Origin: a virus
Taxonomy: Duplodnaviria > Caudoviricetes
Length of the DNA: 43,982 bases
Reading direction: 5' to 3' (one strand)
Virus record (IMG/VR): IMGVR_UViG_3300032233_000914
Location: 1-43,982 of that record
The translations under genes were made by a program, and so were the position numbers. Below the pieces are notes generated by a model. It had not been told where the DNA came from. It saw only the letters and a list, made by a program, of their open reading frames with translations, and did not search any database. Below, piece after piece: positions 1,474 to 39,993 of this stretch. Each line of letters begins with the position of its first letter. Position 1 is the first letter of the stretch.

Positions 1474-4400
1474 ATGTCAGATGTTTCTAGTGTTGATCAG
1501 CTTGAACAAGACCGTAATGCTGTAAGTAAAATTACTGCACAGTTTGGTATGGATAATCGTTTGGCGTGGCGTACGCGAATGATTGTTAATCAAAACCCGT
1601 ATATGGCTAATCGCCCTGAAGCAGTTTTAAATCTTGCTCAAATGGCATTATCTGATAACGATTTATTAGCAAATGTTGGCCAAATGTACGGTATGGAAAA
1701 TGCCTCAAACATGGCTGACGATCTTAAAAATTATTCACCTTCAATACAAAGATCTATTTATAGTTCATTAACTCCAGCACAACAAGGAACTCTTGTTCAA
1801 ATGGGTTATGAAATTCCTAAATCTGATTTAAATAATTCGTCTTGGTTTGACGAAGTTTTAGGCGGTGTAGCTAAACCAGTTGGTGCTGTTATTGGTGGTG
1901 TTGGTAAACCACTAATGAAAGTTGTTAGTCCAGCATTACAATTAATAGATACAGTTTCAGATACGGTCATGTTTAGACCATATCGGACCATTCGACAGTT
2001 AGATGATCCAATACAAATTCTTGGTTTGGGTGCCGCTGTTGCTGGTGGTGTTGCTGCTGTAGCGTTAGCACCAGCAACATTTGGCGCAAGTTTAGGTACG
2101 TTGGGAACTTTGGCTATTGCAGGAGCAGGAGCCGCAGTAGGTGCTTCTGCTACTACTTTGGCAGCTCAAACTCTTATTGGTAACCCGCTTGATTGGACTA
2201 ATGCTTGGTCTCGTGCAGGTAATGGTGAACGTTTATTTAAAGATAGCGGTTTACAAAAAGCTGAAGATATTCTTGGTGATTCACGTCTTGTAAACTTGGC
2301 TGAACAATTTGCTTCAGAAATGGATGACTATTCTTTATTAGATATTGCGCGTGACGTTGCTGGAACGGACCAAGGTTTAAATCCTACTGCACAAGTTAAA
2401 GAAGTTATTCAAGTTGCATCAAAGTTTGCTGATGAGGGAACTGCTGAACATAAAAAACTTGTTAGTGGTTTAACAGAACTATTAGCAAGCCCGTTGTTTC
2501 AAGATGCTGTAAAAACACTTGTTCAAAGTAAAATTAGTATCGGTCGAGATGTTGCAGGTGTTATAGGTTTAGATCCTGATTCCGATGCTTACCGCTGGGT
2601 TTCTGGTGGTATTGATGCAGCAACTGTTATTGCTCTTGACCCATTCATTATTGCAGGTAAATTTGCTCATGGCTGGCAGTTTGCTCGTCGTGGTTTACAA
2701 TGGGCTGACGGTGCTGTTGCTGTTGAACGAGTACGTAAAGTTGCACAATTACCTGAAATGCAAAGAGTATTTAAAGAAGTAGCACGTGCTGTTAATGATG
2801 GCAATATTCGTCGTTTAGATCTTTATGCCCCTTGGATGAAACCAGCATTTGATGATTTACGACAGCAAAAATATCTTTTAGATGACTTGGCCGAAAGCGG
2901 AACTATTGCACGGCAACCCGATAAAGTATTTGATGAAAACGATGTTGTTGATTGGCTTGTTGGTCAAAACAACCTTAAATCAATTATGTCCGGAACTGGT
3001 ATTATTAAAGGTGCTGGCGAAGGAACATTGCGTGGGTTAAACAAAACTCAATATGCAATGCGTACTGCCAAAGGTACTGTTAAAGAATTTTTCCGTGGCG
3101 TTGATGAAGTTGCAGCAAAAAAACTTGGTCAAGGTAAAACGCTTGCCCAAAAAATATCTGTTCCCTCAATTGGTAATACAACACCATTGCAATTACAAAA
3201 AATTGCTGTAGACAACCCTTCTTTTTATGATGACCTCGTTCAAGATTTACCTGTTGAGTGGCAAACTAATCCACATTTAATTGATGCTCTTAACCCTAAA
3301 GCTTTTGAAACAGGAACATATTTTGCCAACATACCTGGTGTTAAATCATTAGGTGCTTTTGTAAACGCAATAACAAAAATGGTTCCAGGAAGATACGTTA
3401 AACTTGTTGGCGCTGAGTCAATGCAAGAGATAGAAAACTTTGTTGACCTTTTCCGTGTAGCAGCAGTACCTGATTCAGTTCGACACATTTGGAAAAAAAT
3501 TATTCTTGATGCCCCAGATGTTGGAACACGTTTAAACGCAATTAGTTCAATGTACCGAAGTTTTTTTGATGCAGCAGGATTAAAATTAAGTGACGATGTT
3601 GCCGAATGGGCAGACGATCTTCTTAAAGCAACTAAGCAGTCCTACTCTATTGGCCCTAATGGTCGTGCAGTTATTAACGGCACAGAAACAATGCGGGCAG
3701 TATTACCTTTTGCTGATAACGCTGTTGCTATAAGCATCCCAGATTTACAGTCAATACGTAAAGCCGCACGTCAAGGTTCAATTATGCGTGTTATGGCAGG
3801 CATTCCAGAATCAACACCAATTAAAGCTTTCCAAGATAAATATTGGAAACCAGCAGTTTTGCTTCGTTATGGTTTTGCTGTACGAAACGGCATGGAAGAT
3901 CTTGCTGGTTGGATTAGTCGTGCTGGTATCGGCTATATGGCTCAAGAGTTTGCTTCACGCAACTTAGCCAAACACGAACTTTTTGATGAAGCAGTAACAC
4001 TTGCACGACAAGGAATTAAAGTATCACCACAAGAAGAACAAGCATTGCTAAGAAATTTTGGCATTCCAGCACACATGCGTCCGGTTCAACGTATTGTTGA
4101 AAAGATTGGTGTGGCTGGAGACCCAGCTTTGCTTGGGCTTCAACATTACAACGATTGGTTATACGAAAAATTAGCTAACGGTTTTGGTTCTAAAACTTTG
4201 AATGGTTGGTTAAAGAAAATAGATGAACTTCCAACAGGAGGTTCTGGTTGGGCTGTTGGCGACAAATGGCTTGCTCCCGACACATTAAAAGCAAACTTTA
4301 ATAGCAATATAAAAGCATTGTTTTTAGGTAACCCATATTCAAGTCGTCGAATGATGATGGGTGGAGTTAACGTAGAACTTTTAGAATCAGCAAAAAGTTT

Positions 4401-7400
4401 CCAAAACATTTTTGGTAAATCGTTGATGGAAAAAATTGGTACTACTAATCTTCTTCCAGGACAAAGACCCATTACTGGAGAAGAGTTTTTCCAAGCACAA
4501 GTAGGACAAAAATCTAAACGAGGTACTGGCCGAATAGATTTTCTTCATGCTAATGGTGAACGAACTGTCGTTGCAGTAGGTGGTCCTAAATCTCGTTTGT
4601 TACAAGATGGTCATCATGCTGTTTTGGAAAGTGTTGCACGATTAACTGACGATGAGGCTGGGGCATTAGCTCTTGGTTATGTCCAAAAAGTTATTACAAA
4701 AGACATTTTAAAAGATATGTCAGAACAAGAAATACTTGATTTAGTTCTTGATTGGAAAATTCTTCTATCAACAATTGGATCTGATGAAATTGGCCAAGAC
4801 CTTTTTCAAATATATAGAGTGCTAAACGAATCTTTAGAAGAACCAGCCGTTGCTGCTAAAAGATTTCAAGCTTTAGTAAAACAATTTGAACTTAAAAATT
4901 CGCATTTTGTCCAACCTTTGATGGATCTTCAAAAGCAATTTGGTGGTTTGCGTGCTCCTACATGGGGTGATTTCCAAAATGTTTTTGGACCATGGCGCAA
5001 AGATACAAGACGAGTAGGAAAAGTACTTGATAAATTTCACGCACTACATATTAGAAATATGTCTGAAACTTCGCTTAAATGGACATTTGCAAATATTCAT
5101 TTAGATTACGTATCAAATGGTAGGCATTTAAGTCCAACAGAAATTGAACGATGGAAACAAGAAATAAATCGTGGCCTTCCAGCAACTAACGAATTTAATC
5201 AAATTGGTCCATTTTATGCTGACCGAGATACGGCTTTAGCTAGTGCTAAAAATGATTTGCTAGAAAAATTTAATCGTGGTGAAGGTAAGTATGGAGAACT
5301 AAACCAAAACCGTGAATTTATTCCAACAGTACCTGGTACTGAAGTCAGAGTAATGTTGTTCCCACGGCTAGGTACAGGCCCAATTGACCCAAAGTTTTTA
5401 CAAGGAACTTTAACTGATTCTTTAGGTAATATTGATTTAGATAATTTAGCTTTTAGTGTTTTTGGTTTAGATGTTGCAACTTTAAATTCGTCACAACTTA
5501 AAGCTTTGCAAGGTATTGGCGATCAAATTCTTAATTCAATTTTGACTCGCAATGAACTAGTTCTTGCTGGCATGAATGATGCTCAAATATTTAGATTACG
5601 AACATTAATTGATACTGCTTTTAAAAATGCTGGTTACCCAGGTATCCCAGATATTGCACGAGCACGTTTAATGGTTGGTGGCAATAGCGCATTGACTCAG
5701 GCATATCCTGATATTGCTGAACGTATTCACACATTAAAAACAGGACCAAGTGGAGCTGATCAAGTATCAGTTATTGGTTGGGATCAAAATGTTTATCCGT
5801 TGACACGAGATTACCTCGACACTGCTACAGCAAATATTGGAAACGAAACACTAGTAGAAACACTAATTACTGCCGTAAGAGATCGTGTTACTGCTGGCCG
5901 ACGAACAGTATTTCATGTTGCTGAAGATCAAACTTTGTATCGAAACCTTAACGGCAAAGCACTTCAAGTACCACCTGGAACAATTATTGATACAACTGAT
6001 ACATATTTCTTAGATACCAAATTAAGTAAACCAGTAGAGTTAGGAAATCAAAGATACATTAAATCTTCTGCTGTCAGCTTTGAAGGTAACGATGAAATTT
6101 TATGGTCAATTGTTTCACCTATTTCTTATGATCATGCTGAACTTGTTTCAGGTAAAATGCTTGAAGCTCCTAAAAATAGTACACCAGTATTTGTTGATGG
6201 AAAATATGTTGATGTGTCAACAGAATTTGATCGTCTAAGAACTTCGTCAGTACGAGATGTTTCTAAAACATCTGCTGGAATGCTTCCAGATTTTGAAATA
6301 GCAAAAGTATACGAACCAAAGTATACGAACGCTTGGGATCGTTTTGTTCAGTACGGATTCAATAATGTTATTGGATCTTCAATTGATGCTATTGCTCGTC
6401 GCCCAATGGCTTTCCACGCTTTTCACCAAGCACGATCACGTAACATTAAATCTGTTGAATGGTTATTCCGAGGTACGCAAGCCGAAGCAACATTAAACAG
6501 TCGTATTTCAATTCTTAACGGAAAAAAAGTATTTGCTACTGCCGGTCCTGCACAAATGCAAAAGTTTGGTGACGTTGGTCGTCTTGCAGGTGAAGCGCAT
6601 GCTGTTGAAGGTTTTAGACATTGGTCGGACCGTGAAGCATTTGCATATCTTAAGGGATTCTGGAATCATTCCGATCCACAGCAATTAGATAATTTAATGA
6701 ACCAAATAAAAGCTGGTGTTGCTAGAGGTTCTGAACAATTTAATGATGCACAAGCAAAAGCTTTAGTACGATGGTTTGAACGAAATAATGGTAACTTGGC
6801 TGTAACTTTGCCTCATGATGTTGACGCTTTTGATTTTGTAGATCATATTGACGCTTACTTTGGTGAAGGTTCAGCACTTTTAGGAAAACCTATTACACCA
6901 AATAAACTTTTGAATGGTGGTCCAAACGGACCAGCTATGGGACTTTATCGTGATTTAGAAATAGAAGATTGGGACGCAATTAAAAAAGCGGCAGAAGCAA
7001 AAAAACTTGCTTACACAAACGCCGAAGAATATGCTGCCGAATACGCAATCCGTGACATTATGCCATTTATTGACAGTCACGAATTCCGTTCACAATTTGC
7101 TGATTGGGCTAGAGGTTACCTGCCTTTCTGGTATGCACAAGAAAACTTTTTAAAACGTTGGGCAAAAACATTTACCCTTGACGGTGCTGCTGGAACATTT
7201 GCTCAAGCAAGAAAAATGCAATTAGCATTTACTGGTCTTAAAACTATGGGTGTTATTCGTGAGGATGCTCAGGGTAAAAGCCATTTTGTTTATCCAGGAT
7301 CTGATCTACTTATTGAAGCTGTATCAAAAATTCCTGGCCTTAACTTGTTGCCAGTTCAAGCAATGTTACAAAGTCCTGCTGATCGAATGATTCCTGGTTT

Positions 7401-8697
7401 TGAAAGCAATGTCGCTGCTGCTGGTGTCACTCCTTTGCTTGGTATGCCGTTAGAGTTTGTTCAAAGTTTGATGCCCGAAAGCCAAGGTATGCGTGACTTG
7501 CAACGTGCTTTAGTAGGCGACATGGCTACGACTCGTTCTATGTGGGACTATGTTGTGCCTGCTTCAGTTAAAAATAGTTTTAATGCTATTACTGCTTACG
7601 CTGGTATTAACGACAGTAAACCTAATGAAAAGATTGCTTCAGCAATGATGGCAGCAATGGCACAACTTGAAGCCGTTGATCAAGGTTTGCCTGATGATGC
7701 TACGCCTGGCCAAATTGATGATTATCTTCGTACCGTGCGTAATCATGCTCGTACTATTATGATAGCTCAAGCTTTGGCTGGATGGTTTACTCCTGGACCG
7801 GCTGTTGCTTTGCAAGTTAATGAGAATCAAACATCTATTTCTTGGTTGACTGATGGGGCTATTACTAACCCAGCAGAATTGTTGTCGTCTACTTACTATG
7901 AGTTGATTCAGGAACTTGGTATTGAAGAGGGAACAATTCGTTATTTAGAGTTGTATCCCAATAACCGTATTAACGATGTTGTTAATCCGCTTGCTTATAC
8001 TGTTGCAAAAAGTACTACTCGTTCTGGTGCGCCTTTGCCTTCAACTGAAGAAAGTATTAGTTTTTATTTTGATAACAAGAATTTGTTGGATCAATACCCT
8101 GAAGCTGGTGCATGGTTGTTGCCTGCTTCGGACAGTAAAGAAGATCGTACTAAGTATGCTTACGACAACGAAGTTATTGAAGGTTTAAGATTCTCGAAAA
8201 CTCCTGACGAATTTTTGACTGAACTAAAATTTAAAGAAGGCGCTAACCAATACTTTACGGCTCGCCAATCATATTTGGATCAATATGAAGCGTTGAGAGA
8301 TGCTGGTCAAAAAAGTAAAGCGGCAGCATTAAAAAATGCGTGGGATTCTGCGTCGGCTATGTTCCGAGCAGCTCATCCTGTTTTTAATGAGCGTCTTGTT
8401 AGTTCTGATGCTCGTACACGTAGGGCGCGGACTATAGATCAAATGAGATTGCTTATTAATGATCCTGAGGTTCCGCAGTCGCCACAGTTTAAAGGTTTGC
8501 GTATTCTTATGAATTCGTATGATTCTTATATGGTGAATAAAGGAAGTTTGGGTTTAAATAAATCTGCTCGTGGTAGGGCTACTTCTGAGGTTCTTAAACA
8601 ACAGTTTGAACAATGGACTTCTAATTTCTTGTTAGAATATCCTGAAATAAATACATTTTGGATGACGGTTCTCCGTCCAGAGACAGGACTTGACTAA
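1474..8697 (+). CDS. Very large internal virion / DNA-ejection protein (2407 aa)
   Basis: Size, position in a podovirus-like structural operon, a hydrophobic Gly/Ala-rich segment at about aa 180-235, and a C-terminal 'LPFWYAQENFLKRW' segment of the kind seen in ejection proteins. Function is inferred. Confidence 0.6.
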   Translation: MSDVSSVDQLEQDRNAVSKITAQFGMDNRLAWRTRMIVNQNPYMANRPEAVLNLAQMALSDNDLLANVGQMYGMENASNMADDLKNYSPSIQRSIYSSLTPAQQGTLVQMGYEIPKSDLNNSSWFDEVLGGVAKPVGAVIGGVGKPLMKVVSPALQLIDTVSDTVMFRPYRTIRQLDDPIQILGLGAAVAGGVAAVALAPATFGASLGTLGTLAIAGAGAAVGASATTLAAQTLIGNPLDWTNAWSRAGNGERLFKDSGLQKAEDILGDSRLVNLAEQFASEMDDYSLLDIARDVAGTDQGLNPTAQVKEVIQVASKFADEGTAEHKKLVSGLTELLASPLFQDAVKTLVQSKISIGRDVAGVIGLDPDSDAYRWVSGGIDAATVIALDPFIIAGKFAHGWQFARRGLQWADGAVAVERVRKVAQLPEMQRVFKEVARAVNDGNIRRLDLYAPWMKPAFDDLRQQKYLLDDLAESGTIARQPDKVFDENDVVDWLVGQNNLKSIMSGTGIIKGAGEGTLRGLNKTQYAMRTAKGTVKEFFRGVDEVAAKKLGQGKTLAQKISVPSIGNTTPLQLQKIAVDNPSFYDDLVQDLPVEWQTNPHLIDALNPKAFETGTYFANIPGVKSLGAFVNAITKMVPGRYVKLVGAESMQEIENFVDLFRVAAVPDSVRHIWKKIILDAPDVGTRLNAISSMYRSFFDAAGLKLSDDVAEWADDLLKATKQSYSIGPNGRAVINGTETMRAVLPFADNAVAISIPDLQSIRKAARQGSIMRVMAGIPESTPIKAFQDKYWKPAVLLRYGFAVRNGMEDLAGWISRAGIGYMAQEFASRNLAKHELFDEAVTLARQGIKVSPQEEQALLRNFGIPAHMRPVQRIVEKIGVAGDPALLGLQHYNDWLYEKLANGFGSKTLNGWLKKIDELPTGGSGWAVGDKWLAPDTLKANFNSNIKALFLGNPYSSRRMMMGGVNVELLESAKSFQNIFGKSLMEKIGTTNLLPGQRPITGEEFFQAQVGQKSKRGTGRIDFLHANGERTVVAVGGPKSRLLQDGHHAVLESVARLTDDEAGALALGYVQKVITKDILKDMSEQEILDLVLDWKILLSTIGSDEIGQDLFQIYRVLNESLEEPAVAAKRFQALVKQFELKNSHFVQPLMDLQKQFGGLRAPTWGDFQNVFGPWRKDTRRVGKVLDKFHALHIRNMSETSLKWTFANIHLDYVSNGRHLSPTEIERWKQEINRGLPATNEFNQIGPFYADRDTALASAKNDLLEKFNRGEGKYGELNQNREFIPTVPGTEVRVMLFPRLGTGPIDPKFLQGTLTDSLGNIDLDNLAFSVFGLDVATLNSSQLKALQGIGDQILNSILTRNELVLAGMNDAQIFRLRTLIDTAFKNAGYPGIPDIARARLMVGGNSALTQAYPDIAERIHTLKTGPSGADQVSVIGWDQNVYPLTRDYLDTATANIGNETLVETLITAVRDRVTAGRRTVFHVAEDQTLYRNLNGKALQVPPGTIIDTTDTYFLDTKLSKPVELGNQRYIKSSAVSFEGNDEILWSIVSPISYDHAELVSGKMLEAPKNSTPVFVDGKYVDVSTEFDRLRTSSVRDVSKTSAGMLPDFEIAKVYEPKYTNAWDRFVQYGFNNVIGSSIDAIARRPMAFHAFHQARSRNIKSVEWLFRGTQAEATLNSRISILNGKKVFATAGPAQMQKFGDVGRLAGEAHAVEGFRHWSDREAFAYLKGFWNHSDPQQLDNLMNQIKAGVARGSEQFNDAQAKALVRWFERNNGNLAVTLPHDVDAFDFVDHIDAYFGEGSALLGKPITPNKLLNGGPNGPAMGLYRDLEIEDWDAIKKAAEAKKLAYTNAEEYAAEYAIRDIMPFIDSHEFRSQFADWARGYLPFWYAQENFLKRWAKTFTLDGAAGTFAQARKMQLAFTGLKTMGVIREDAQGKSHFVYPGSDLLIEAVSKIPGLNLLPVQAMLQSPADRMIPGFESNVAAAGVTPLLGMPLEFVQSLMPESQGMRDLQRALVGDMATTRSMWDYVVPASVKNSFNAITAYAGINDSKPNEKIASAMMAAMAQLEAVDQGLPDDATPGQIDDYLRTVRNHARTIMIAQALAGWFTPGPAVALQVNENQTSISWLTDGAITNPAELLSSTYYELIQELGIEEGTIRYLELYPNNRINDVVNPLAYTVAKSTTRSGAPLPSTEESISFYFDNKNLLDQYPEAGAWLLPASDSKEDRTKYAYDNEVIEGLRFSKTPDEFLTELKFKEGANQYFTARQSYLDQYEALRDAGQKSKAAALKNAWDSASAMFRAAHPVFNERLVSSDARTRRARTIDQMRLLINDPEVPQSPQFKGLRILMNSYDSYMVNKGSLGLNKSARGRATSEVLKQQFEQWTSNFLLEYPEINTFWMTVLRPETGLD

Positions 8698-23186: not shown

Positions 23187-23602
23187 TGTTCCTCTATAAT
23201 AATGTAAACTAAGTCACATTTTCCGAACACTGGCTCTCTTGTTTCCACATACTGGGGTGTGTCATCCGGCCAGAGGTTTGCATCTGTGAGCCCGTCGATG
23301 ATTGGTTTAATGGTCGGATAGTAATTGTGTGGGTCTCGTCGTCGGTTAGATGTAACTGGAAAGATGAAACGGATGACTGCTTTGTGGTCAAGTCTCCGCG
23401 CATCAAAGTCCATACGCCATGCACAAGCCGCATAAAACGCCGCATCACGCCAAGCTCTCTTCGTCTTGGCATTCCAAGTCCAATGTTTCCGTTGATTCAT
23501 CGTCATGTATGGCCCTGGTTGTTCTAGCGGAATTACGATCCCATTCTCTTTGAGACCTAATTGTCCTGCGTTCACGAGCAGATTTTCCACCGTAGAATCC
23601 AT
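23183..23602 (-). CDS. rusA: RusA-like Holliday junction resolvase (start uncertain)
   Basis: 'RRRDPHNYYPTIKPIIDGLTDANLWPDD' matches the RusA DxxN...K...D....DD motif. Confidence 0.8.
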   Translation of the reverse strand: MDSTVENLLVNAGQLGLKENGIVIPLEQPGPYMTMNQRKHWTWNAKTKRAWRDAAFYAACAWRMDFDARRLDHKAVIRFIFPVTSNRRRDPHNYYPTIKPIIDGLTDANLWPDDTPQYVETREPVFGKCDLVYIIIEEQ

Positions 23603-23801
23603 ATAAGTCCATTTCTGTGTTGAGTGCTGACTCTAGACACTCTACATTGACTGGACAAGATCCGCATATTTCTTTGATGGCATGTATATGTTTAACATCT
23701 ACGCCTACTTCAGGGAAAAATATATTAACATCCATCCCTCGGCACATAGCATCTAAACGCCATTCTTCATTTTTGCGATCAAATATTCTCAAGTTGTTCA
23801 C
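23445..23801 (-). CDS. whiB: WhiB-family transcriptional regulator
   Basis: W..A.C...FFP...C..CPV...C..A...GFYGG.S..ER. Confidence 0.92.
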   Translation of the reverse strand: MNNLRIFDRKNEEWRLDAMCRGMDVNIFFPEVGVDVKHIHAIKEICGSCPVNVECLESALNTEMDLYGFYGGKSARERRTIRSQREWDRNSARTTRAIHDDESTETLDLECQDEESLA

Positions 23802-29661: not shown

Positions 29662-30096
29662 TCAGAACGGATCTTCTTCGACCACAGTCGCATTGAAAGC
29701 AGCAGAAGCCGCAACAATACTAGGTGAACTAGAACCTGAACCGTTTTTATCGGTCTTAGTTACAACAGCAGTAGCCCAACGCAACGATGGCCCGATCTCA
29801 TCAAGAACAAGATCGTAAGACGTACGCTTGTTACCTTCTTTGTCAACCCAATCCTTCTGCTCCATACGACCAGTAGCAACAACACGCATACCCTTAGTCA
29901 TAGTGGCTGCAAGATTCTCAGCAAGTTCACGCCAAGCAGTAAAGTTAAAGTAACTTGTCTGCTCTTGCCACTCACCATTTACCTGGTACCGGCGATTAGA
30001 AGCAATACTTCCACTCACCATTGCAGTACCACTCTGCGTATAACGCAACTCAGGATCACCTGTAAGGTTACCTACAACATTAATGCTATTACTCAT
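29662..30096 (-). CDS. ssb: Single-stranded DNA-binding protein, actinobacterial type
   Basis: 'GNLTGDPELRYT', 'WRELAEN', 'EIGPSLRWATA', and an acidic EEDPF tail. Confidence 0.95.
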   Translation of the reverse strand: MSNSINVVGNLTGDPELRYTQSGTAMVSGSIASNRRYQVNGEWQEQTSYFNFTAWRELAENLAATMTKGMRVVATGRMEQKDWVDKEGNKRTSYDLVLDEIGPSLRWATAVVTKTDKNGSGSSSPSIVAASAAFNATVVEEDPF

Positions 30097-30295
30097 GTGC
30101 TATCTCCATATCTTCTAGCGGGATACCATATCCCACTTGTGCTTGTGTATAAAACGCATCAGCGTTAAACTTTTTGTACTCACTAAACGTATCGGCCAAC
30201 ATATATGCAAGCCGATCAATCATTCGTAACTGCGTGACACTAGAGGCATAACCCCTAGCGTCACGCAATGTACGAGCAACATCTGAATAAATCAA
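30089..30295 (-). CDS. Hypothetical protein
   Basis: Coupled ORF with a 'KFNADAF' motif. Confidence 0.6.
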   Translation of the reverse strand: MIYSDVARTLRDARGYASSVTQLRMIDRLAYMLADTFSEYKKFNADAFYTQAQVGYGIPLEDMEIAHE

Positions 30296-30759
30296 ACTGT
30301 CTCTTTATCTGGCAAGAAACAATGTGCCTTACGCATAACCTCATCGTAAAGAAACTCGTCATACGTTGAGGCATCCCATTCAGCAACCTGCTTAAGGTCT
30401 AAGTAACCAAGATGAACATTCACAATTGGTGCATCATTAAACATGCCAAAGTAAACCTCGGCAACAATTGTTTCACCGAATCCATGACGAACAACAAGTT
30501 CGCCACCAGTGTAATCAGCAATCTTGAAATCAAGAATCTCATTCCAATAAGTAAGCAAATCATTTCGTTCATCTAGAGCATACGCCCATGATGAAGGTGT
30601 CTGCACTTGTAAAGTGACACCAGATGCACCGTTATAACTATCAGCAAAAGATATACTTGCTTTCTGCCATAGCGCAACAGCATCATCGATCTGTTCCGCT
30701 ACCGCATCAGCAACAATCCGACGGCTCATATTGTTTGGTTTAGTATATTTCTTTGTCAT
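30292..30759 (-). CDS. Hypothetical early protein
   Basis: GGAGG RBS, 155 aa. Confidence 0.7.
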   Translation of the reverse strand: MTKKYTKPNNMSRRIVADAVAEQIDDAVALWQKASISFADSYNGASGVTLQVQTPSSWAYALDERNDLLTYWNEILDFKIADYTGGELVVRHGFGETIVAEVYFGMFNDAPIVNVHLGYLDLKQVAEWDASTYDEFLYDEVMRKAHCFLPDKETV

Positions 30760-32601: not shown

Positions 32602-32862
32602 TCACCAAAACGGTTGATCCTGCATAGCTACTTTGACAACCTCAACAGGATTTGGGAATGACTCATCACCGTGATACTGGTAATTAATAACACCAATCTC
32701 ACGATTTAAATCATCAATTTTACGCCACAAAGCACGAGTCCATCGAGCTTTACGACTAAACGGATTCCAACTGATCTCATCATTCTCTTCAATCTGACGT
32801 TCAAAGAAACTGATTTCAGTATTAATAAGCATCAACAAATTTAGATATTCTTTCTGATTCAT
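32602..32862 (-). CDS. Hypothetical protein, first gene of the second early operon
   Basis: ATG at 32862 preceded by GGAGG. Confidence 0.65.
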   Translation of the reverse strand: MNQKEYLNLLMLINTEISFFERQIEENDEISWNPFSRKARWTRALWRKIDDLNREIGVINYQYHGDESFPNPVEVVKVAMQDQPFW

Positions 32863-32904
32863 AACAACCTCCAAGTAGTAGTAAAAAATATGACAACGCA
32901 ACTA

Positions 32905-33035
32905 TTTATGTGCCTGACGCGAGCCATTAGTCCCTAGGTAGAAACGTGATAGTGATGCGGCCGGGGCCGATTCGTTCGAGAGCTGGCTTGCCAGCGGTAG
33001 CGTCGTGCGGGGGCGCAACCCCGCTCTGGCATTTT
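32905..33035 (+). promoter_or_regulatory. Small GC-rich multi-hairpin element upstream of the second early operon
   Basis: TGCC/GGCA, GACGC/GCGTC, CGGCC/GGCCG, GCTGG-CTTG-CCAGC and GCGGGG/CCCCGC stems. Confidence 0.55.
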
Positions 33036-33041
33036 TGGCTG

Positions 33042-33088
33042 AAAAAAAAAGAGAGGTAGGCTGGTGGTGGCTTTCGCCACCACCAGCC
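33042..33088 (-). terminator. Intrinsic terminator of the first early operon
   Basis: 13-bp perfect stem GGCTGGTGGTGGC-GAAA-GCCACCACCAGCC, followed on the - strand by a pyrimidine run and T9, directly after the stop at 33098. Confidence 0.85.
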
Positions 33089-33097
33089 TTTACTGAC

Positions 33098-34141
33098 TCA
33101 GAAGTCAGGTAGAGCAGGAACACCTGCTTTAGCCAACTCCTTTTCCTGCTCCTCATAGAGACGAGCCTCACGCTCATCAGCCGATTCTTCTAATCGCTGT
33201 GACTCCATTGAGTGACGGTAAAGAACCGACAACGCCTTGGCGATATCAGCCATCGTCTGTTGCGCTTCCTCTAAGTAGACGAAACCTTTGTACCACGAGT
33301 CAACATGACCCGCTGAAATTCGGTCAAAGTCAATGAAACTCATACCTTCGTACTTCGTTCCTTCACCACCAGCTCGAGTCGGCAAAGTGACTTTTTCACC
33401 ATTGAACTTGACGAACTCCGACTTGACCCGCATGATGGCGTAATTCCAACCATACTTGGCGTTCGTGTAACTGCCACCTGGTACTTCTACACACACTAGG
33501 TAGTCACAATCCGTAGACATAACACCATCGCTAGTCAATGGCAACCAGAACTTTGAGTACGCAACCGACTCAAACTCAACCAAAGACTTGCGTACTGGCC
33601 GACGCTTCTCAGAACCATCGTCGTTGATGATCGTTGACCAATGTGAAATTTGAGCCAACTGGATCATCGCCGACTTGGCTTTGAACATTTGATTTTTGAG
33701 TTGTGCAGGCGTGTAAGTACCACGTGATGAGAGAATTCGTTCACACAGTGACTCAACTGTAATGACTTGAGTTGTCTGCGCTTTGACAACGATCTCCAAC
33801 GCTTCCTCCACAGCCTCTAAACCACGATTTCGGCTGACAGGCTTTTCCTTGATGGTATTACCACTTTCTTTAGCTTCATCGCTAGTTTGCTCGATGACAA
33901 CTTCGGTAACTTCCTGAACTTTCTGACTCGCCTTCATGAATTCCTCCATAGGGATGTAAGTGATTTCACCAGTTGTGAAATCAACATTGACGTAACTGAG
34001 CAACGACTTCTCATCAAGAATCAACTGACCCGATGCAATCCCACGCTTCATCAGCGATTCCGAACGCTTCGCATTAGTGACTCTCGTTTCAACCATTTCA
34101 ACTAACTCGTCAATGGTCAATTTGATTTCTTTACGCTTCAT
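33098..34141 (-). CDS. Hypothetical early protein (347 aa)
   Basis: Long ORF with GGAGG RBS; no recognised motif; ends in LPDF. Confidence 0.8.
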   Translation of the reverse strand: MKRKEIKLTIDELVEMVETRVTNAKRSESLMKRGIASGQLILDEKSLLSYVNVDFTTGEITYIPMEEFMKASQKVQEVTEVVIEQTSDEAKESGNTIKEKPVSRNRGLEAVEEALEIVVKAQTTQVITVESLCERILSSRGTYTPAQLKNQMFKAKSAMIQLAQISHWSTIINDDGSEKRRPVRKSLVEFESVAYSKFWLPLTSDGVMSTDCDYLVCVEVPGGSYTNAKYGWNYAIMRVKSEFVKFNGEKVTLPTRAGGEGTKYEGMSFIDFDRISAGHVDSWYKGFVYLEEAQQTMADIAKALSVLYRHSMESQRLEESADEREARLYEEQEKELAKAGVPALPDF

Positions 34142-34401
34142 AGCAATTTTCCTCCGTGATTGACTTGAATGGTGATTGTGAGGGGGATTCCTCGGGTTGT
34201 CATACGATTCTCAACGGTCACGACTTGGAGACCGTTAGGAAAAACTTTGATGATGGTTACAGGCACAACCTTCGCTGTGCCAGTAACACCTACATCAACA
34301 ACATCTAACTTATCCATTACAACCTGTTCAGCACTAGGTTCTACTAAACCCAACTGACTCATTTTGTAACCGATGTAGTCAATATTCGGTAATTCGTTCA
34401 T
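34138..34401 (-). CDS. Hypothetical early protein
   Basis: GGAGG RBS, TGATG coupling. Confidence 0.7.
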   Translation of the reverse strand: MNELPNIDYIGYKMSQLGLVEPSAEQVVMDKLDVVDVGVTGTAKVVPVTIIKVFPNGLQVVTVENRMTTRGIPLTITIQVNHGGKLL

Positions 34402-34580
34402 CAGATCTCCTCCAATTCTATATAGTTAGTGTTGTCATCGTCTGTATGCTCGGCATAATGGGCGATCATATCTTTTAGAACATCCCAAATGTCTGTATAC
34501 AATTCAACTGTAGTTAGTCGGTGATTTGTGAAATCACCGACTAAATCAACAATCCGTCTGTGTGCCATAACCTTGTTCAT
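34401..34580 (-). CDS. Hypothetical early protein, 59 aa (absent from the ORF track)
   Basis: MNKVMAHRRIVDLVGDFTNHRLTTVELYTDIWDVLKDMIAHYAEHTDDDNTNYIELEEI; TGATG coupling at both ends. Confidence 0.7.
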   Translation of the reverse strand: MNKVMAHRRIVDLVGDFTNHRLTTVELYTDIWDVLKDMIAHYAEHTDDDNTNYIELEEI

Positions 34581-34861
34581 CAGAACGCTCCATCTTCGTC
34601 AATAGGGAAACAACGGATTGAACCACACTGTTCGTCACCACGGTGAAAACAATGAATCATAACTACTTCCTTAAAATACGGTTGAATCATCGCTAGTGCT
34701 GAATAACCACACATTGTCGCAGTGAAACTGTCGTAAGGACTGTCAAAACTGAACATCCAAGTAAACGCTTCACAGAACGGTTGCTCGTCAACCGTTCCGT
34801 ATACAGATTTGAATTCCTCAGGGGTGTAATCCCTGAGGTGGTCAACTGATTTGAACTTCAT
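34580..34861 (-). CDS. Hypothetical protein, first gene of the leftward arm
   Basis: GAGGAG RBS immediately beside the structured island. Confidence 0.7.
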   Translation of the reverse strand: MKFKSVDHLRDYTPEEFKSVYGTVDEQPFCEAFTWMFSFDSPYDSFTATMCGYSALAMIQPYFKEVVMIHCFHRGDEQCGSIRCFPIDEDGAF

Positions 34862-36026
34862 TTCTTTCTCCTCTCAAGCGGGAAGTCGGAACGACTTCCT
34901 CGCTCCGCAGGAAGGAGCAAACCCCTCCTCGGAAAAACTGAGGGCGACAACGGACGTAGAAATTTTTGGGTGATAGTGAATGAGGTCGTATCTGTCGTTT
35001 GTTATGTACGACCCTAAATAGCACCCAAAAATTTTGTGAGGCGGTCGAAAAAGGTTTTTTGGCATGGCCAAAGATCTAGAGCAAACGCCGCCCTTGCGTT
35101 TGCCTTGAGCGACGCCGTGGTCAAAAGCCTTTTTTGATCAACGACTGATCTCGTGGGCGGGGAAGTTATTTTCTTTTTACTGGAACTTCCTCGCCCACGT
35201 AGCCGTAACGCACAGTTTTTCAGGGGTTTGTGGGAGTGCGGTACGGGTTGCGCCGTAGCGCAACCCACCGATAGATTTTTTGACCGAGGATTTTTTTCGC
35301 AATCTTTTCCGCGAAAAAATAAATATTATCGGTCCTGCCTATGCGAGGAAACTTTAAAAAATCTTTACTTTCCCCTGCGGTGGTTTTCCGCTGGGGAAAG
35401 GGCGGTGGGCAGACGCCCGTGGCACCGCTACCCATCTTTTTCGAAAGTGCGGTTCTTTCGGAAAAGGGGCGATTTTGGGTGCGCATGAAAATCTTCTCTT
35501 ATGTCCTCAGGGATTTTCCGCGCACCCGAAAATCGTGGGGTGCTGAAGTTAGAGTCTGAAGGGCGGTCGGGCTAGCCCGACCCTTTCCCGACAGGGGAGG
35601 GAAAGGCGCAAATGATTCGCTTGCGAATCTGGAGAATAGGCGCTTGCGCCTTCCAAATTGCGCGCCCTGATTCTGCCGTTACTTTCGGATTGAGACGTTC
35701 TAGAGGCAATGCCCGTAGGCATTTGGAGGCTTCCGGGGGCGAGTGTTTTCTATGTTATGTTCGTCCTCGGGAGCCTCCAAACCATCAGTTGCCCTTGAGC
35801 GTCCCGAAAGTTTGGGGGTCACCACCCACGATTGAGAGAGGGTCTCAAAGGGTCAGGCCCGCGCAGCACCACCGACTGCCCTCTCCGTGGGAGGGGGGAC
35901 CCGAATCCCATCGCCCTGCATCCCTAAATATGTCGTGGCGCCCTAGCGCCCTGCGTTTTAGAACTCGCTTGCGAGAAGCCCTAGCGTGAAACGCTGTCGG
36001 CTCGAAGAGCTGACAAGCCCTTGTCC

Positions 36027-36407
36027 CTTGACCTTGCGCGCCCTTGATCTTTGCTCTTGACCTTTTGCCCGAGGAGGGAGAGCGCCCTTCTCTCCCGAGT
36101 CGGGACCTCGGGTTGTTAAGGGGGAGAGGACTCCCCCTTAAGGTCTGCCGAGGGAGCCGTTAGGCGAGCGAGGATAGGAGGTGGAGCGAAGCGACACTGA
36201 CAAGCGCCCTTGACCTTGGCGATGACCTGAGTAGGCGAAGCATGACGGCGACGAAGGAGCCGAATGCTGAAGGCTACGATGGCGAGCCGTGCCCTTGACC
36301 TTGACCTTCCGCGCCGAGCGAAGCGAGGCTGTACTTGACCTTGACCCCCGCAAGGGGGTCTAGCCGAGTCCCGAGCGAAGCGAGTGGTCGGCGTTTCTCT
36401 TGACCTT
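36027..36407 (+). repeat. Dispersed CTTGA(C/T)CTT-type short repeats (9 units)
   Basis: CTTGAY starts at 36027, 36043, 36056, 36209, 36294, 36300, 36334, 36340 and 36399. Confidence 0.85.
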
Positions 36408-36592
36408 AAGCCATTCGGAAGGCAAGTGCCCTTCTTGCCTGATGAATGGGCGGGGCGTTTCAGAGGGGGTCGCCACCCCCTCTGAGGTCTGGTGGTTGCT
36501 AGTGAGCCGTTAGGCGAGCGAAGGAAAACCCTGCGAGCGCAGCGAGCAAAAGCAGAGCGCAAGCGAGCGACAAACCAGCGAACGCAGTGAGC
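36154..36592 (+). repeat. Array of eight GA-stem-G(N)1-2A-stem-GA mini-hairpins
   Basis: GAGCGAAGCGA x3, GAGCCGTTAGGCGA x2, GAGCGCAGCGA, GAGCGCAAGCGA and GAACGCAGTGA. Confidence 0.85.
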
Positions 36593-37238
36593 CACTAAGC
36601 GACCAAAGGGAGCGCAATCCTTAGGGTACACACACCACACACACAAGCGTACAGAACAATAATGAAGCAAAGATAACAACCCTGCTCACACACCACCAAC
36701 CCACAGTCATGTGCTGTGTGATGCTGGTACGGTGGCAAGAGAGCATCGTTTGACCTGTGTTTTTGCGACCAGAGTCGCCAGTCTCGTGAAAGAAAGTCAA
36801 ACCGCTGGTGATCGCGCCTCTACCAAGCGCCCTTCTTGGTGGGCGCAGATCACCGATTCTGTATAATCAGATGTGCCAGCACCCCCATCGTATATATATC
36901 GTCCTGTCTATTTTATTATTTCTGTGACAGTGACATTGTTTCACTATTTAAAGACGGGTGACTCTAGTGTCAGGATATCCCCCCACCGTTTCAACATATC
37001 TGTTGTGGTGGCCGGAGATTGCAGGACGGAGAACCAGATTCATTTGTGACGTTTGGACGCTGCTCCCTCGCATCAAGTGCGAAGGTCTACCCACCTTTCG
37101 GTGTGTCATCCTCTGTCCCCGTGCAAGGGGGCGGGTCTGTTAGAAGCCTCTTCTGCTTCTTGTCGGTGATCAGTTGTGAGCGTTAGCTGTGGGGTCTGTC
37201 TGAAAAAAATTTTCTTTAGAGACGCTTCCTATGGGAGA

Positions 37239-37247
37239 TGGTATCAT
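37239..37247 (+). promoter_or_regulatory. Putative extended -10 promoter giving a leaderless mRNA
   Basis: TG-G-TATCAT, with 6 nt between it and the ATG at 37254. Confidence 0.5.
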
Positions 37248-37253
37248 AGGGGT

Positions 37254-37457
37254 ATGTCATCTTCCTCTTCTTCTGCCATCATTTTTGAAGATATTTGTTT
37301 GGTTGCGTATCTTGAAGGGAGATGGGCTTCGCCCTTTACATTTAAAAGAAGTAAACGGGAACATGACGCTGACTCCGCTGAGGTTCATGCTAAGTTGATG
37401 GATTGTGTTCTTGGTGTGATATATTGTCCGTGGTGTGGGGATCGATTTGAAAGTTAG
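37254..37457 (+). CDS. Small protein with a C-terminal CPWCG motif
   Basis: In frame with track ORF 37176..37457; ATG placed at the putative transcription start. Confidence 0.5.
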   Translation: MSSSSSSAIIFEDICLVAYLEGRWASPFTFKRSKREHDADSAEVHAKLMDCVLGVIYCPWCGDRFES

Positions 37458-37463
37458 GTAGCT

Positions 37464-39993
<2,530 letters not shown>

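Follow-up and report, generated by a model that had tools for sequence, protein, structure and literature searches.

The window analysed here is a complete virus record of 43,982 bases (IMGVR_UViG_3300032233_000914; Duplodnaviria, Caudoviricetes), in which a non-coding island lies at the point of divergence between the leftward early genes, which end at 34861, and the rightward late genes, which begin at 37254. The phage encodes an SU10-type major capsid protein, a terminase, tail fibres, a protein that binds single-stranded DNA (SSB), ParB, RusA, two exonucleases and a Gp3-like protein. Though a preliminary description had treated the island as a single folded element of 2.4 kb, the analysis revealed that it is real yet made of three parts, designated LEFT, MID and RIGHT (Table 1), with RIGHT being separate, almost unfolded and highly conserved. 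Related loci, called relatives in the text (L002, L004, L049 etc.), and other compared loci carry L-numbers; a terminase search supplied 39 loci, seven of them with 10 kb upstream, an early-gene search supplied L002, and a metagenome scan supplied three loci (L048-L050).

Table 1. Features of the island and of the genes around it, with positions in the window.
Feature	Position	Strand	Remark
LEFT: conserved multibranch folded domain, allele A	34862..35990	+	
First hairpin	34881..34899	+	adjoins ribosome-binding site of leftward gene starting at 34861
310-nt multibranch domain	34918..35230	+	closing C-G pair becomes A-T in L002
16-bp hairpin	35152..35199	+	entirely absent in L002 (50-nt gap)
Helix	35273..35364	+	in L002, four pairs changed compensatorily and one turned into T-G
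Long-range helix AATCGTG/CACGATT	35531..35833	+	allele B has it as a short stem
21-bp stem with three G-T pairs	35722..35781	+	TTATGT in loop
GCGNAGC mini-hairpin within LEFT	35861..35867	+	L002 and L008 differ at N only
MID: variable mini-hairpin array	35991..36620	+	loops C(GNA)G or c(GTTA)g; tandem G-A pairs in many
MID mini-hairpins	starts 35995, 36177, 36246, 36313, 36372, 36502, 36532, 36578	+	pyrimidine-rich linkers between
Eight CTTGAC linker repeats	36027..36404	+	8:0 (+:-), 0.8 expected
A/C-rich conserved tract	36625..36735	+	still recognisable in L041 (51% terminase identity)
Hypervariable stretch	36736..36869	+	flanked by two conserved blocks
RIGHT: near-invariant, weakly folded	36870..37253	+	
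Family-wide motif GATGTGCC-N13-16-ATATA..CGTC(C)	36870..36906	+	single copy
WhiB transcription factor	23445..23747	-	profile match E 7e-15; context: actinobacterial host
SSB	29662..30096	-	profile scans; context gene
347-aa early protein	33098..34141	-	distant homologues adjoin island in relatives; subtype tracks island allele

Folding was assessed on both strands with DNA and RNA parameters against dinucleotide shuffles (12-20 per segment). For LEFT, the z-scores were -11.9 (+) and -13.2 (-) as DNA and -9.6 (+) and -8.5 (-) as RNA; for MID, they were -4.3 (+) and -2.1 (-) as DNA and -6.2 (+) and -1.8 (-) as RNA, and for RIGHT they ranged from 0 to -2.4. The folding beyond chance that had been expected of the whole island is thus found in LEFT and MID but not in RIGHT, and the nested inverted repeats occupy about 1.75 kb but not the last 380 nt. 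A further domain proposed at 36722-36881 has a 9-bp helix with one T-G pair in its sequence but is missing from the minimum-energy fold of 36620-36885 (z -2.4). Among the 500-nt tiles sampled, the strongest was that at 35001 (-8.4/-11.6), with tiles at 30001, 33001 and 34501 reaching about -5 and most of the remainder lying between +2 and -3; the adjacent coding stretch 33700-34829 is folded too (z about -5). The energy z-scores by themselves leave the choice of strand in LEFT undecided, and it is the mismatch count that picks the + strand.

The stems of LEFT named in the preliminary description were located in place: 34927-34940/35213-35226 lies within the domain closed by 34918/35230, and 34960-34975/35019-35034, 35152-35167/35184-35199 and 35722-35742/35761-35781 (three G-T pairs, no A-C) are all present, as are the G-CTTG-C loops at 35620, 35643 and 35968. 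The first hairpin does touch the first ribosome-binding site of the leftward genes, and the + strand is indeed their template; the loop of this hairpin reads G(GAA)C in the window and c(GAAC)g in L002. Of two GNA triloops reported earlier, that at 36004 is a C(GAA)G, but that at 34889 is closed by G-C and lies outside the extra-stable class. The hexamer TTATGT also occurs in loops at 35002 and 35499.

Aligned to L002, LEFT is identical at 891 of 1051 bases, and it shares 92% identity with L008 over 35765-35974, while blastn found no match to it in L004, L011 or L024. Pairs predicted on both strands, with G-T disallowed, were then followed between two sequences, the window and L002. From the window to L002, 204 of 289 pairs were unchanged, 33 gapped, 15 compensated, 12 turned into G-T on the + strand, six turned into A-C and 19 broken; the reverse comparison of 232 pairs gave nine compensated, seven G-T, five A-C and 14 broken. 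When the register-shifted first hairpin and the divergent stretch 35560-35670 were set aside, a hand count gave nine compensated, seven G-T, no A-C and 10 broken. In strand-neutral stems, the mismatches of LEFT read on the + strand were 10 G-T vs one A-C (coding controls, 20 vs 25), and eight vs none in local stems only. Because shuffles of LEFT themselves yield 59:35, the corrected p-values are only 0.045 (10:1) and 0.024 (8:0). Pooled over eight island segments of the family, hand-chosen by the analyst from 17 to limit redundancy and including the related L004 and L011, G-T made up 46/69 mismatches against 32 expected (p 3e-4). These patterns suggest that LEFT has been selected to fold, and on the + strand; the earlier statement that imperfect pairs are mostly G-T on that strand is borne out, and the choice of the + strand is supported by the mismatch count together with the MID hairpins, which are confined to it.

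DNA rather than RNA is moderately favoured for LEFT, because its internal GCGNAGC varies at N alone and because the predicted + strand RNA loops (n=31) include one GNRA and no UNCG. That LEFT represents a structured RNA, about 1.1 kb long and either a + sense non-coding RNA or pre-primer or partly a - sense early leader, followed by the DNA-type array of MID, is rather improbable. Such an RNA would suit the multibranch architecture, the covariation and the deletion of a whole hairpin, as well as the G-tract at 35889-35899, which is retained in L002 and L008; G-T pairs suit RNA equally, and single-stranded DNA (ssDNA) and RNA motifs are hard to distinguish computationally (PMC5737381; this and the other articles cited are drawn on from excerpts). 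On the - strand, two conserved LEFT hairpins also have the loop cUACGg, which is stable in RNA; on the + strand the same hairpins are able to adopt a bulged C(GTA)G triloop and are therefore not decisive. However, the loop counts and the N-only variation given above speak against an RNA, a - sense RNA would contain 10 A-C mismatches vs one G-U, and Rfam 15 returned no match at the gathering score and by E-value nothing credible in 32800-37500 or in five related loci.

The best evidence for DNA in the island was observed in MID, for which DNA is strongly favoured over RNA, so that the ssDNA nature proposed earlier for the whole holds strongly here and moderately in LEFT. Seven C(GNA)G hairpins were detected on the + strand of MID (0.17 expected) and none on the - strand, together with 10 tandem-GA hairpins on + (1.23 expected) and none on -. 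Relative L049 (1-2300) contains 16 C(GNA)G hairpins on + and none on -, and 27 tandem-GA hairpins on + and three on -, whereas positions 1-34861 of the window have none on + and one on - of the C(GNA)G type. Six of the seven + strand copies of GCGNAGC fall within 35861-36543. The MID copies vary while the fold is retained, with GAA, GCA, GTA, GGA, GTTA, CTTG and CCTG loops and with differing stem pairs. Wider classes of DNA tetraloop exist, and tandem sheared G-A pairs are stable, though tandem G-A is also known in RNA. Hairpins of the GCGNAGC and GCGNNAGC types are far more stable as DNA than as RNA, with melting at 76.5 C as DNA vs 39 C for r(GCGAAAGC); they bind SSB poorly, resist nucleases, and are found at the G4, St-1, alpha3 and RSF1010 ssiA priming sites and at N4 promoters (PMC13037366). 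Mini-hairpin arrays on the + strand were also seen on the far side in L049 (1-440) and L041 (6480-6580), bracketing the conserved first early gene.

Substantial variation of the island was observed within the family. L004, L011 and L024, whose terminases are 99% identical, carry a shorter homologous island allele B in place of allele A of LEFT, in which only motifs such as the AATCGTG/CACGATT helix are retained, and MID is different in each isolate, its size and content varying strongly even where the terminases are 99% identical. Allele B contains short direct repeats (L004 6321-6352; L011 6067-6090; L048 50-73), of the form ATCGGTT(A/T) and of GGTTTTAA type, which could be iteron-like binding sites. 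This variability would agree with hairpins that protect or mark a physical genome end, as a nuclease-resistant 3' + tail or as packaging or recombination signals, or with a MID that is partly a neutral accretion of mini-hairpin repeats that copy themselves, an explanation we regard as quite unlikely. The sharp conservation edge at 36870 and the contigs L027, L028 and L012, which begin 19, 97 and 126 nt ahead of the RIGHT motif, fit it as well; mini-hairpins resist nucleases (PMC13037366), and the phage encodes RusA and Cas4-like and other exonucleases. However, the contig starts differ in base position, the repeats are restricted to the island and to one strand, and neutral accretion leaves the covariation of LEFT unexplained.

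RIGHT is likely, as inferred from its sequence, to be a separate element that comprises the late promoter and the late operon's leader, with an opening motif that is possibly also a packaging site. This motif was found in relatives with 51-65% terminase identity, and a motif scan gave 14 matches, 11 in family members and three in apparently unrelated loci; in several alleles it includes TATAAT or TATAAC, facing the late genes. RIGHT is regarded as non-protein-coding because a 1-nt indel near 37016 is tolerated, and with weak folding and this indel it was rejected both as a folded non-coding RNA and as a gene. In the only RNA run found, a contig covers 36972-37189 and others cover late genes (unstranded contigs, which may be DNA). 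RIGHT was not retained as an abundant stand-alone RNA, with the late genes in that run at similar or higher contig depth, and the lack of any contig on LEFT or MID in the same run proves nothing, given its low depth, the use of contigs only and the possible presence of the other allele.

The linker sequence CCTTGACCT was retained in five of the eight close sequences examined, and GCCCT occurs 15 times on + and three times on - in the island (four expected), often in loops, with + to - counts in relatives of 7:0 (L011), 7:0 (L008) and 4:0 (L004). The RNA polymerase primer of phage M13 presumably begins at the T of one CGCCCT motif, with which the sequence is consistent. The M13 intergenic region (V00604) carries CGCCCT four times on the viral strand, and the primer is 18 nt long and begins with pppApG without -10 or -35 elements (PMC3632114, PMC7430646). 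The minus-strand origin of M13/f1 resembles the island in having G-T stems on one strand and CGCCCT enriched on the folded strand (PMC3632114, PMC7430646), unlike it in that the island belongs to a phage without an ssDNA genome. One exact match of 14 nt (35938-35951) to the viral strand of the M13 intergenic region (L051) and two shorter ones, among them 11 nt at 35908-35918, were given no further weight; the 14-mer has P 0.006 and three 10-mers have P 0.094, the comparison is post hoc, and the 14- and 11-nt matches are not retained in L002.

The direction of replication was examined at four-fold degenerate sites. Read on the coding strand, + genes contain G379:C543 and - genes G263:C149 (Fisher 1.5e-14); the skew is seen in 18 of 26 + genes and 17 of 24 - genes, seven of eight codon boxes shift alike, and in each of the two gene blocks it is the - strand whose synonymous sites are G-rich. 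The G-rich strand is usually the leading strand. By this rule the - strand would be leading, with a single leftward fork and its first primer laid on the + template. The skew therefore argues, indirectly, against the + strand as a genome-long displaced strand, the mode of exposure first suggested, and against a ColE1-like + sense primer, which would drive a rightward fork; in ColE1, the leading strand has the sense of the pre-primer RNA. In rolling-circle single-strand origins (sso), likewise, the folded strand is the displaced one, and no HUH Rep family occurs among the scanned open reading frames (ORFs) to go with a double-strand origin.

From this evidence we tentatively read 34862-36620 as a single-strand initiation site at an origin, opened locally and primed by the host, and perhaps as an early promoter too, which in our judgement falls just short of being probable. 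Its folding is predicted on the + strand only. The island would first be opened locally, through supercoiling, by some product of the early genes, or by resection if an end of the genome falls within it; the + strand would then fold into hairpins that resist SSB while the - strand remains open, and host primase, a PriA-type primosome or RNA polymerase could begin RNA on the + template, with the GCCCT or CTTGAC linkers as possible start points. Extension by host DNA polymerase would proceed leftward, in the same direction as the early genes, whose transcription might be supplied from that RNA start as well. Leftward priming at a locally opened site is a better fit than displacement of a strand across the genome, and it is at least as good a fit as a promoter role, from which it could not be separated here. 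A wider proposal, in which a family of tailed dsDNA actinophages without replication enzymes or initiator opens or resects one genome end and thereby exposes about 1 kb of + ssDNA, whose folded structure recruits host RNA polymerase or primase for early genes and one-way replication and whose alleles are paired with alleles of a neighbouring early protein, is doubtful.

In its working, the island is proposed by analogy to resemble a single-strand initiation site. As in the G4, St-1 and alpha3 origins, RSF1010 ssiA and the phiX174 pas, mini-hairpins capped by GNA or GTTA lie on one non-coding strand, and priming at those sites depends on host or trans-acting functions (PMC13037366, PMC5778457). 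DNA mini-hairpins confined to one strand are thus shared as a sequence class, with SSB resistance taken from PMC13037366. Unlike those sites, the island belongs to a 44-kb tailed dsDNA phage in which no primase was found, and it carries about 8-10 variable copies with tandem G-A beside a multibranch domain of 1.1 kb. The plasmid motifs ARRPOF, GEBRO and PAGEV are similar in being long, covarying and near replication functions, with their RNA or ssDNA nature left open (PMC5737381), but they measure 223-349 nt against about 1.1 kb and do not share the phage context or the absence of an Rfam match.

Two promoter systems come closer to the early genes. In the Frpo/ssi promoters, as in the island, the folded strand serves as template for early genes beside it, an SSB gene among them (PMC11541004), and the virion RNA polymerase promoters of N4, a podophage-type dsDNA phage, have triloop hairpins with sheared G:A on the template strand, at the end that enters first (PMC4496689); a template-strand hairpin with a GNA triloop is found in the island too. 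Host RNA polymerase might accordingly read the folded + strand for the leftward early genes upon entry, with priming secondary, which we consider unlikely on balance. The template role of the + strand and the first hairpin abutting the first ribosome-binding site would fit this, as would RNA polymerase starting on an M13ori DNA hairpin without -10/-35 (PMC3632114, PMC7430646); a linear scan of the - strand in LEFT and MID turned up no sigma-70 promoter with paired -35 and -10 boxes directed at the early genes, and allele B has TTGACA in stems with TATAAT or TCTAAT close by. The same scan gives no support to membership of the Frpo class, which had been suggested, and no -35/-10 pair at promoter spacing was seen by eye in the predicted stems. 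The island is also much larger than Frpo, and the conjugative leading region (oriT, relaxase) is lacking in this complete phage record, which has capsid and terminase genes instead. Unlike those of N4, the island hairpins are embedded in long stems and distant from the gene start (1.1-1.7 kb for MID), and L049 and L041 have arrays beyond the first early gene as well. No virion RNA polymerase was detected: neither T7-type and DxDGD motifs nor any matches were found in the 2407-aa protein at 1474-8697, a probable internal virion protein without Pfam, PHROG, NCBIfam or PDB match.

An outside test was made on viral contigs with twin GAGCGAAGCGAG, giving 120 loci (L056-L175) from 40 of 64 collection parts, of which 109 were distinct and 26 overlap a mechanically called ORF. 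In the 109 distinct loci, additional C(GNA)G hairpins up to 500 nt away lie on the same strand in 144 cases vs 22 on the other, and farther off in 50 vs 52. To the 5' side of the folded strand, neighbouring genes occupy the opposite strand in 48 of 69 callable loci (p 0.002), a geometry shared by the window island, while the 3' side is unbiased (31:31); divergent junctions number 18 vs three convergent. The 5'-side bias implies that something travels 3' to 5' along the folded strand, and therefore a replication fork or an RNA polymerase. About 190 viral contigs carry twin GAGCGAAGCGAG, for the most part between genes and in a set orientation to their neighbours, and the motif is a possible general marker of origins or promoters.

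Several observations weigh against an initiation site for priming. The gene bias of the survey fits a promoter equally well, and the window island contains no initiator, iterons or DnaA box. The same skew direction was seen in only four of six relatives, two of them near-identical to the window; the skew shows direction and not place, and codon selection or gene history may mimic it. LEFT contains no four-pair hairpin of the strict C(GNA)G type, its two cUACGg loops favour RNA at face value, and pairing is not clearly tied to higher conservation in one direction of comparison (paired vs unpaired positions, 76/533 vs 84/518; other direction, 47/463 vs 113/588). Strict C(GNA)G hairpins on + number seven in MID of the window, 16 in L049, two in L004, one in L002 and none in L011, with 0-2 in the islands of distant relatives, and therefore no single copy is essential. 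GCCCT is not enriched in L049 (2:5) and was rejected as a general companion of mini-hairpin arrays (82:95 in unrelated loci); because it shows no enrichment near arrays of unrelated phages, it stays a lead.

For most uncultured dsDNA phages without encoded replication enzymes, origins are unmapped, and DNA-type loops on one strand offer a sequence-level means of separating folded ssDNA from structured RNA. Some hundred unrelated viral contigs show this signal again, oriented in the same way to the genes beside it. Should the site prove to be an origin, tailed phages use folded DNA on the kilobase scale, and such arrays would help to locate origins. The open-access main texts searched describe no such island in a tailed actinophage, and BLAST gave no match for the island against GenBank phages, for MID against plasmids (PLSDB) or for the L049 array against phages.

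A total of 53 ORFs were scanned with PHROGs and Pfam, with subsets rescanned at looser thresholds and with NCBIfam; no polymerase, primase, helicase, Rep or relaxase matched among them, within the sensitivity of profiles, and a tRNA/tmRNA search found none. WhiB is a marker of actinobacterial hosts (PMC6802176), and its gene points to such a host here. Host assignment from genomes yielded a single partial terminase contig in a mismatched metagenome-assembled genome and was not used. The 347-aa early protein belongs to a fast-diverging family (17-29% identity between subtypes) that is a candidate island-binding or initiator protein. Profile, viral, PDB and VIA searches found no family or fold match for it (best Z 4.4), it had no Atlas hit, and its predicted model has a pLDDT of 65. 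Family members lie beside the island in L004 (4753-5556), L020 (2977-3555), L037 (5894-6568), L041 (6674-7456) and L049 (441-998).

Two distant relatives have a single perfect DnaA box each, in or close to the island (L020 4120-4128; L041 6598-6606); as companions of arrays, DnaA boxes were rejected for lack of excess (11 in 94.5 kb near arrays vs 13 in 170.6 kb). A second small folded non-coding gap, at 32863-33097 just beyond the 347-aa gene, carries a terminator-like hairpin of 14 bp on its - strand and one of g(CTTG)c type on its + strand, and is conserved in L002, L004 and L011. The 30001-30500 tile, with its z of about -5, is near the start of the SSB gene, and TTATACACA occurs on - at 30152, 31290 and 31949. 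Inverted repeats were also located within the first early genes, a perfect 14-bp one at 34514-34544 and an imperfect 15-bp one at 34809-34845.

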